Source: a virus | UHGV virus genome: UHGV-1635749 | Strand: one strand, 5' to 3' | Length of the DNA: 15,654 nt | Shown here: piece by piece, positions 1 to 1,714 of the stretch | Position numbering within the stretch: the first letter of the stretch is position 1 | Layout: each line of letters opens with the position of its first letter | Position numbers and translations under genes: made by a program | The notes under the pieces: model-generated | Seen by the model: the letters and a program-made list of their open reading frames with translations, nothing else | Databases searched by the model: none | Told to the model about the DNA's origin: nothing

Positions 1-187
1 AGCTTCCAGACCACCAGTTCATCCCCCGGCTGCATAGTGGCGATCAGCCGTTTTAGAACCGGCCGATTCGATTTCCTCCCGCTGGCATGCTCTTCAAAAA
101 TTTTCTCACAACCCGCTGACTTGAGCGCCGTTAGTTGCAATTCAGTGTCCTGGTGGTTTGTTGATACTCGGGCATAACCGTAAATCA
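1..187 (-). CDS. Serine recombinase, DNA invertase family (Gin/Pin/Hin/Cin-like), N-terminal 62 aa; gene continues beyond left edge
   Basis: Reverse complement from ATG (plus 185-187) translates MIYGYARVSTNHQDTELQLTALKSAGCEKIFEEHASGRKSNRPVLKRLIATMQPGDELVVWKL. This matches the serine recombinase N-terminal catalytic region (GY-RVST with active-site Ser, GC--IF-E--SG, RP-L--L, GD-LVVWKL). AGGAGA lies 6 nt upstream of the ATG. Not in the ORF track because no stop lies inside the window. Confidence 0.8.
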
Positions 188-192
188 TGGGA

Positions 193-219
193 TTTCTCCT
201 GTTATGAAAACAGGAGAAA
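193..219. promoter_or_regulatory. 27-nt near-perfect palindrome (11-bp arms) overlapping the invertase Shine-Dalgarno sequence
   Basis: tttctcctgtt-atgaa-aacaggagaaa: positions 193-203 are the exact reverse complement of 209-219. The AGGAGA ribosome-binding site of the invertase sits in one arm. Candidate operator or RBS-sequestering hairpin. Confidence 0.35.
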
Positions 220-263
220 CGGCGAAGTATCGCCAGATTTTTGGGGGTTATAAAAAAGGTTCC

Positions 264-449
264 TTACTGAGTAGACACATCTGCCGGCTTAATGAATTTT
301 TTCCCATCATATAACCAGCCGATACCGACACCTCCTTCAGCCAGTACAGCAATGCCATCCGTTGGCTTCCACTCGGATTCCCCATCCCACACGGCGATAT
401 TGACGACAACACCGTTATTTACAACCGCATAAATTTTGTTTTCATTCAT
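264..449 (-). CDS. Small hypothetical protein (61 aa from ATG at 449) in the position usually held by a tail fiber assembly gene
   Basis: ORF MNENKIYAVVNNGVVVNIAVWDGESEWKPTDGIAVLAEGGVGIGWLYDGKKFIKPADVSTQ. Its ATG (447-449) overlaps the tail fiber stop TAA (449-451) by 1 nt. The track's longer form starts at GTG 464. No family recognised. Confidence 0.45.
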   Translation of the reverse strand: MNENKIYAVVNNGVVVNIAVWDGESEWKPTDGIAVLAEGGVGIGWLYDGKKFIKPADVSTQ

Positions 450-1714
450 TACTGATACTCCCACACAATAATATAACCCTGATAACCGTCATTACCTCTG
501 GACGTTGCACTGTTTGCCGGACTGTATTTACCCGTTCCGCCTTTTCCATAAACGCCAATCATGGTCGAAACTGTGCTTTCGAGTCCGACTGCCATATCAT
601 CACCAAGACCAAAAGCTGCACATGACGGGGAGTGAGAAGCAGAGTGAAACAGAAGTCCGGCCCCTGTTGGTGGTGAAGCTTCGGCGGCACTGCCACCTGA
701 GAACGGAGGAACCTGCTGACGTTGTTGTGAGCCTTTGCCGCCCGGACAAACGAGTAATGAACCAAAACTTGTCTGACCGCCATCTCCACCAGAACCACCA
801 GGCCCCGCACCGCCCACACCACCGGCGCCAATCGTTACAGGTACAGATTCAGGAATATCCTGATAATAAAAAGCCTTTCCGTAGGCTCCAGGAGAACCAG
901 CTGCGCTGATGCCACAGTTATTTGAGGCTGTTGCTGATAAATTGCCACTGGCACCACCACCGCCAACGGCTTCCACTATAATTTTCGTTACACCGGGTGA
1001 TTTGTAGTACATCCCAGAAGTACCGAATACCTGCACTCCAAGTAAACGTCCTGAGCCGTCCCCCAGTGTCAGATACTGAAGCATATCAGGAACATTTTCT
1101 TTACTGATAAATTGACGGCCAGCGAGCGTCAGCGCTGATACTGCCGGAACATTTTTACCAGAAAAAAACAGAACCTGATCAGCGTCAGTTTGCGGCCCCA
1201 GCGTGGAAAGTTTTGTCAGCGTATCGCTGAGGGGTTGTTTGTTTTTTAGCGCTTCTATAAGACCAAGGTATGTGAGAATGTCAGCAATAGTCTTTTTCCC
1301 AATAATGTCACGGCCAACAGAAGTTAAATCAGTCTGTGATGCTGTATCAGTTCCAGTGAAATACGGGAGTTTATTTGCACCGGTTGCGAGCCCAGCCAAT
1401 GCCGTCAGCGTGGCATCAAGCGCCTGGAAATCTTTCCCGAAAGCGGTCCCCATTTTGGATATAAACCCGTTCAGGTCTCCATCATCAAGCACATCCAGCC
1501 CGCTTTTGTTGGCGGTGTACTGCGCCAACGCTGCCGCGATAAAGCTGGCTTGCCGAATAGCTTTGTTGACCTGTGCGCTGGATGCTTTACCTGCCGTAAA
1601 CCCTGAAAGCAGAGCCGGAAGTGCTTCCCAGTCAGCTTGTGAGGTGACGTTAGCGTTCGGATCAAGCGCGAAAGGTTTAAAGTTGTTTATTGCCATTAGA
1701 GTATTGTCCCCCAT
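449..1714 (-). CDS. Tail fiber protein (421 aa; alternative ATG at 1696 gives 415 aa)
   Basis: Residues about 95-153 (nt about 1256-1432), ATLTALAGLATGANKLPYFTGTDTASQTDLTSVGRDIIGKKT...YLGL, match the conserved segment I recall in P2 gpH / Mu S / P1 S-type tail fibers. Gly-rich C-terminal half. Follows the gpI-like gene as in P2 (V-W-J-I-H). The ATG at 1696 overlaps the upstream stop by 1 nt. Confidence 0.85.
   Translation of the reverse strand: MGDNTLMAINNFKPFALDPNANVTSQADWEALPALLSGFTAGKASSAQVNKAIRQASFIAAALAQYTANKSGLDVLDDGDLNGFISKMGTAFGKDFQALDATLTALAGLATGANKLPYFTGTDTASQTDLTSVGRDIIGKKTIADILTYLGLIEALKNKQPLSDTLTKLSTLGPQTDADQVLFFSGKNVPAVSALTLAGRQFISKENVPDMLQYLTLGDGSGRLLGVQVFGTSGMYYKSPGVTKIIVEAVGGGGASGNLSATASNNCGISAAGSPGAYGKAFYYQDIPESVPVTIGAGGVGGAGPGGSGGDGGQTSFGSLLVCPGGKGSQQRQQVPPFSGGSAAEASPPTGAGLLFHSASHSPSCAAFGLGDDMAVGLESTVSTMIGVYGKGGTGKYSPANSATSRGNDGYQGYIIVWEYQ

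Follow-up and report, generated by a model that had tools for sequence, protein, structure and literature searches.

Virus genome UHGV-1635749 raises the question of what a DNA invertase gene is doing beside a tail fibre gene when no alternative fibre cassette is present for it to invert. The window analyzed here is the entire metagenome contig (ENA ERZ650794 NODE_1595, 15,654 bp), and every credible gene in it is on the minus strand. Comparison with related loci in other genomes indicates that this one is quite likely a degenerate Pin-type switch of tail-fibre host range that has become locked and whose invertase is an orphan, the outer parts of both crossover sites being still recognizable. 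A scan of genome contigs for relatives was limited to 14 loci; related loci are cited below by locus number where they need to be distinguished.

The tail fibre gene (449–1696 in the public gene call, 415 amino acids (aa), with a start that abuts the upstream DUF2612 gene; 421 aa from the first ATG at 1714) is followed by a small open reading frame (ORF) of 61 aa (264–449), a spacer of 75 nucleotides (nt) that forms the invertase leader (189–263), and the first 62 codons of the invertase gene (1–188, MIYGYARVSTNHQ...), which runs off the contig end. The preliminary description had reported a fibre gene next to an invertase gene without an alternative cassette, a 61-aa ORF and 76 bp between the two, and no credible fibre-like ORF on the opposite strand, and we find this to be accurate except that the spacer measures 75 nt. 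A tblastn search of the whole window with alternative fibre C-termini and assembly proteins, taken from relatives with a complete switch and from the e14 prophage of Escherichia coli K-12, gave no match to these parts, the sole match of the fibre queries being the common fibre N-terminus, and the two plus-strand ORFs lying under the fibre gene (505–909 and 1203–1772) match no PHROG family. The two opposed fibre-end and assembly cassettes of a complete switch are thus represented by a single forward cassette, and there is no fibre- or tfa-like coding capacity elsewhere in the window.

The recombinase itself shows no sign of being misidentified. Its visible 62 aa start MIYGYARVST and include the YARVST motif, in which Ser9 is the catalytic residue, as expected of a resolvase-type catalytic domain with a serine near position 9–10. 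Identity over these residues is 100% to three proteins, phi80 PinL, the HK225 invertase and the canonical-switch invertase of E. coli PSJ-22 (whose allele equals that of the window across all 188 comparable nt), and it is 61% to e14 Pin and 58% to Gin. At the DNA level, positions 1–261 are 98.5% identical to HK225, to locus L009 and to Citrobacter phage Omnitron. The window protein stops at codon 62, and the rest is judged on the full-length gene of two contigs sharing the 61-aa ORF, L006 (which also shares the fibre) and L004 (a different phage backbone). It is 181 aa long in both, within the ~180–195 aa typical of these enzymes, and has Resolvase (Pfam, E 2e-38) and C-terminal helix-turn-helix HTH_7 (E 2.6e-12) domains. 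This relative can be aligned over its full length with the protein of the Gin crystal structure (4m6f, E 1e-55), Ser9 falling on Ser9 of Gin, matches the PHROG DNA invertase family (E 1e-73), and is closer to invertases than to the Tn3/gamma-delta resolvases (gamma-delta resolvase, E 1e-23). It shares 55% aa identity with PinE and 51% with Gin. The PinL clade forms a separate branch, with at least 82% identity within it and ~50–55% to Pin and Gin; the invertase genes of the canonical E. coli relatives have 84–86% DNA identity to that of L006. The PinL allele has the accession WP_000639140.1, and this invertase is carried by ~114 E. coli genomes. By these comparisons the window recombinase is a predicted Din-family serine invertase of a distinct 'PinL' branch, and its earlier identification as a DNA invertase is upheld, the full-length relative neither lacking the helix-turn-helix nor grouping with the resolvases. 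A strict Fis consensus scan of window positions 1–188, the 5' part of the gene, where invertases of this family have their Fis-dependent recombinational enhancer, found no site, in a search of low power that finds just one or two in gin and pinE. We also note that two independent assemblies, the window (position 1) and L007 (position 2081), both end at invertase codon 62, which suggests that the remainder is repeated sequence, present also in another pin-like gene of those samples.

The canonical E. coli prophages with the same DUF2612, baseplate J and fibre family provide the reference for an intact switch. Their gene order is fibre, tfa, inverted tfa', inverted fibre C-terminus, invertase and yciI, with the convergent cassettes on a segment of 1.8 kb (1.8–3 kb across strains). 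The site in the fibre gene (TTACCACAAACC TT GGTTTGGGAGAA) and that located 85 bp upstream of the invertase ATG (TTCTCCCAAACC AA CCTTTTTTATAA) are inverted relative to each other. The e14 pix sites, read from K-12, are CTCTCGAAAACC TT GGTTTGGGAGAA and TTCTCCCAAACC AA CGTTTATGAAAA and are of the same kind as the canonical PinL sites; both sets agree with the 26-bp consensus for Din sites given in PMC4134206. In one canonical prophage, that of E. coli ET791, an IS1A element lies between the opposed cassettes of the PinL-type segment (L032:3349–4046), and a second recombinase-family gene is located ~1.5 kb beyond the invertase.

Crossover sites were sought in the window by scoring all 26-mers that have AA or TT at their centre against the Pin half-site consensus (12-2-12; maximum 24). 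Only one 26-mer reaches at least 16/24, and just 2 of 100 shuffles yield any such site. This is site L (1253–1278, minus strand), which lies at the junction of the constant and variable parts of the fibre, reads TTCTCACATACC TT GGTCTTATAGAA in the gene sense and encodes LTYLGLIE. Its score of 18/24 is made up of 10/12 for the constant-side half (1267–1278), the same as in the canonical relatives, and 8/12 for the inner half, with the central dinucleotide at 1265–1266. The second site, R (248–273, minus strand; TACTCAGTAAGG AA CCTTTTTTATAA in the gene sense), was recognized by combining half-site scoring with the comparison to relatives, and is a hybrid. Its invertase-side half (248–259) and central AA (260–261) are identical to the canonical site, and its inner half (262–273) is unrelated to the canonical one, scores 6/12 and holds the stop codon of the 61-aa ORF, bringing the total to 12/24. 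Both inner halves, the ones that form part of the segment, are therefore non-canonical, and the window does not contain two complete 26-bp inverted crossover sites. The preliminary description had suggested looking for such inverted repeats, one inside the fibre gene and one near the invertase; a Pin-type site and an invertase-side half-site are indeed found in these places, and what is missing is the inner halves and the whole of the alternative cassette. A simple core search with AAACCNNGGTTT gave hits no more frequent than expected by chance (it did touch 1260–1271), and consensus half-site scoring was needed; the other long inverted repeats in the window are all weak and unrelated to Pin sites.

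The inner half is what separates canonical from locked loci, as it scores 10–12/12 in the former (L009, L010, L032 and e14) and 4–8/12 in the latter (the window, L004, L001, L031 and L030). Inner halves of 10–12/12 are also present in L013, L014, L016, L018 and L019, which were scored without a check of their layout, with L017 (8/12) as the exception. On the invertase side, similarity to HK225, L009 and L010 stops at 261. On the fibre side, canonical ET791 is 93.6% identical down to 1262, and similarity to M172-1 (L034) stops at ...ACCTTGG. E. coli 873.10 (L001) is 98.9% identical over 2400–1263 and 98.1% over 264–1, and is unrelated between. All of these breaks fall at or within ~2 bases of the central dinucleotides at 1265–1266 and 260–261, from which it follows that the outer halves have been retained and everything between the two central dinucleotides (262–1264) differs. 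At R every locked locus has the junction AGG-AA-CCTTTTTTATAA, in place of the ACC-AA-CC... of the canonical loci. The AGG in front of the central AA (262–264 in the window) is common to the locked loci L001, L030 and L031 despite their different upstream genes.

We class the locus as a degenerate switch because two defining features, complete inverted sites and opposed cassettes, are absent, and this accords with the first of the explanations considered when the locus was initially described: only outer half-sites remain, the segment has been replaced, and there is no second cassette. The proposed ancestor would have had, in order, the fibre constant part, site L, a variable end with its assembly gene, an inverted second variable end with its assembly gene, site R, the invertase and the prophage end. 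In the window lineage, all of the DNA between the two site centres would have been replaced by a single forward cassette, leaving the outer half alone of each 26-bp site, so that we infer loss of a switch and not that there never was one. The phage would then make one fibre type, and the invertase, its gene kept behind terminator-like and ribosome-binding-site-masking hairpins, would have no productive target in cis.

Several observations weigh against this interpretation. L026 and L027, which have no invertase, also contain the constant-side half TTCTCACATACC TT GG in their fibre genes; this half of L is thus a conserved coding motif, and alone does not prove that a switch once existed. One poor half-site is tolerated by natural sites such as hixR, and by this analogy the hybrid R site may keep weak activity. 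The remaining C-terminal two thirds of this contig's invertase, and the sequence beyond it, lie off the contig. Finally, the invertase is intact in four of the five locked loci, which suggests either that the event is recent or that function has been retained.

The last point bears on whether the invertase is retained for action in trans, flipping the fibre segments of other prophages (e14-, P2/Mu- or PinL-type) in the same host or mediating recombination between prophages, a possibility that is compatible with a locked state in cis. In this form the suggestion made at the outset that the recombinase acts elsewhere may hold. The protein is probably still an active enzyme, and one able to act solely in trans on the switches of other prophages within its cell. 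The intact ORFs are 181–188 aa long, a canonical switch is served by an allele identical to that of the window, and PinL and e14 sites have the same inner half (TTCTCCCAAACC); probable trans action on a prophage with its own invertase truncated has been described (PMC4134206). In Kluyvera sichuanensis 090646, two contigs (L012:1–170 and L023:1–165) have identical DNA up to site R and then differ to its right, continuing into two different invertase leaders; these could represent either two prophages with identical alternative fibre ends or recombination between the sites of the prophages. Against this, the invertase is frameshifted in one locked locus, the contig shows no other switch, and intactness may merely mean that the event was recent. 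That trans action is the reason for retention is thus a tentative proposal, which we regard as possible and rather doubtful.

Another question is whether the locus is a working ON/OFF switch, in which inversion between L and R truncates the fibre after ~150 residues and gives fibre-less particles or an off state. The two sites are inverted and their central dinucleotides (TT and AA) are compatible, and the AGG-AA-CC shared by all of the locked loci could reflect a selected alternative half-site. The predicted inverted junctions are ...CACATACC TT CCTTACTGAGTAG... and TTCTATAAGACC AA CCTTTTTTATAA, also written as ATTCTCACATACC-TT-CCTTACTGAGTAGAC and TTCTATAAGACC-AA-CCTTTTTTATAAC. As read from the sequence, the inversion would join ...ACA TAC CTT to CCT TAC TGA, encoding just Pro-Tyr-stop after the constant part, which argues against such a switch. 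The inversion should moreover be rare, because R has two poor half-sites (6/12 each) and L a mediocre inner half (8/12); the scores of the other locked loci are 4–6/12. All five public contigs with the cassette share one orientation, which is weak evidence since assemblies report the majority form. Neither the inverted nor the parental junction was found in JGI metagenome contigs, and a search of IMG/VR likewise gave no parental junction; with the parental form equally missing, the failure to find the inverted junction is uninformative. Taken as a whole, a functional ON/OFF switch is distinctly improbable.

A third alternative, suggested at the outset and allowed by the contig's stopping within the invertase gene, places the invertible fibre DNA to the left of the window, on the downstream side of the invertase. 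The relatives offer it no support. In L006 and L004, the invertase stop codon is followed by ~190 bp, a short fragment, and then host-type DNA. We take the fragment to be the 3' part of the tRNA-Thr gene thrW; ARAGORN calls no tRNA at this position. The DNA beyond it, which adjoins ykfI/yafW, is present in ~5,000 of 5,426 E. coli genomes, from which we conclude that the invertase end of these loci is the prophage end. Elsewhere, the invertase is similarly the last phage gene, in front of yciI (L009, L010 and L031), torT (L001) or yccA (L030), and it abuts attP in phi80 and HK225. The canonical relatives have their segment between the fibre and the invertase, and in M172-1, a locked prophage available in full (38.8 kb, measured from the integrase to the invertase), no additional Pin-type site is present. 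Because the invertase ends every relative examined, at an attachment site or at host DNA, and no further site is found in M172-1, we consider invertible DNA to the left very unlikely, to the point of scarcely being worth entertaining. Five draft contigs (L011, L012, L015, L020 and L023) end 160–930 bp from the invertase.

On the minus strand the invertase leader contains a terminator-like hairpin (220–235), detected also by a terminator scan, and then a 12-pair hairpin (192–220) that buries the Shine–Dalgarno sequence GGAG. The predicted RNA fold of the leader has an energy of -25 kcal/mol (z = -7.3), and none of 200 shuffles is as stable. Leader DNA is 95–98.5% identical to that of the phi80/HK225 group of invertases, both hairpins (together 192–235) are conserved across all PinL-clade loci, and in phi80 the outer pair of the stem shows a compensatory change from U-A to C-G. 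The probable effect of this structure is to hold invertase expression at a low level and to insulate it from the late operon. The 192–220 hairpin is annotated 'IR3' in phi80, and we rejected this 27-bp palindrome upstream of the ATG as a crossover site: its geometry is 11-5-11, it has no AAACC core, and it overlaps the Shine–Dalgarno sequence and folds into a strong RNA hairpin.

The fibre protein consists of a constant N-terminal part (~aa 1–147) and a glycine-rich, variable C-terminal part. PHROG tail-fibre families match aa 1–152 (E 2e-86), and the DNA of the N-terminal part is 97–99% identical to that of many E. coli prophages down to 1244–1263, with the C-terminus varying. The ~1-kb cassette between the site halves (262–1264, minus strand), which stands in place of an invertible segment, comprises the glycine-rich fibre C-terminus and the 61-aa ORF in a single orientation. 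The small ORF has no match in Pfam and matches phrog_14370, a family of unknown function (E 5e-19). The glycine-rich fibre end (aa 146–415) and the small ORF recur jointly in L025 (E. coli LHM10-1, an e14/StfP-type prophage) and L026 (strain AW1.7, a prophage of the same family), both of which lack an invertase, the small-ORF homologues being 64–69% identical. Because an ORF of 59–68 aa always follows the glycine-rich fibre end, in three prophage contexts (264–449 in the window, L025:4825–5004 and L026:4952–5158), it is possible that it encodes a fibre accessory or assembly factor or a chaperone, for which it is a candidate. In L025 (5004–6104) the glycine-rich fibre end is joined to a preceding N-terminal fragment of e14-type StfP, a fragment that is annotated as a pseudogene; this fusion is a further mosaic joint at the boundary of the fibre constant and variable parts.

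How the locked state arose can be addressed through its distribution. At least four different genes, three of them diverged tfa genes and the fourth the 61-aa ORF, occupy the position upstream of R in locked loci, and the arrangement is found on two phage backbones and at four integration sites. This is compatible with a single ancestral event, the outcome of which then spread through homologous recombination in flanking DNA. Another possible history is repeated invertase-mediated deletion or exchange at quasi-sites sharing the central AA, with Pin-type sites acting as exchange points. It is suggested by the outer half-sites in every locked locus, the breakpoints near both centres and the AGG-AA-CC junction, and quasi-site recombination has been documented for Cin (Iida and Hiestand-Nauer 1987, as cited in PMC4134206). 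No native quasi-site after the 61-aa ORF is supported, the 3' end of the ORF being different in the invertase-free L025 and L026, and for this reason the quasi-site history stays speculative and is, in our estimation, unlikely. If it were true, unrelated prophages would trade whole receptor-binding cassettes at Pin-type sites, in addition to flipping them.

The rest of the window is a module for the tail and baseplate, that of a contractile-tail-type prophage and not a lambda-J-type tail. The public gene calls include a PhiTE-type tube protein, a tail chaperone, an SLT tape-measure protein, a Dit-like protein, a sheath initiator, baseplate J and DUF2612/wedge proteins.

Set beside known systems, the locus shares with the e14 Pin/P-segment of E. 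coli K-12 an enzyme of the same Fis-dependent Din family (Gin, Cin, Pin and Hin), the same type of 26-bp site (the e14 inner half TTCTCCCAAACC being the canonical half of the PinL clade) and a position directly after the tail-fibre genes. Unlike the window, with its one forward cassette and outer half-sites, e14 has complete sites, which enclose two convergent cassettes of fibre end and assembly gene. The canonical switches in front of yciI (PSJ-22, G3/10 and ET791) have 85–94% DNA identity over DUF2612, baseplate J and the fibre constant part and the same invertase allele, leader and outer half-sites, but they keep a 1.8–3-kb segment with two opposed cassettes and inner halves of 10–12/12. 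In EC958 Phi4, as here, one component of a switch has decayed and trans action is in question, although the case is the converse, as it is the invertase that is truncated there, with an intact segment and sites (PMC4134206), whereas the invertase of the window looks intact in its relatives and the segment has been lost.

A documented parallel is with the orphan invertases located by attP in lambdoid phages (phi80 pinL, HK225, mEp237 and mEpX1), which likewise lack a functional invertible segment; in phi80 and HK225 the invertase, identical over the 62 aa, is also the last gene before the attachment site. These two phages differ from the window in keeping a complete or near-complete R site, and phi80 has an inverted tail-collar pseudogene fragment beside the invertase; the window has lost the inner half of R and its invertase sits on a contractile-tail-type baseplate module. 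By analogy, the situation appears to be the same as that of phi80 pinL, now on a contractile-tail-type prophage. The locus would illustrate a route by which a host-range switch decays, the segment being swapped for a single receptor-binding cassette with the recombinase and outer half-sites left behind. For annotation, it follows that an invertase by a fibre gene is not alone evidence of phase-variable host range, for which two full 26-bp sites and an opposed cassette are required. The presence of breakpoints at site centres in several independent loci offers, in addition, a modest lead on the involvement of serine invertases in the horizontal exchange of fibre modules.

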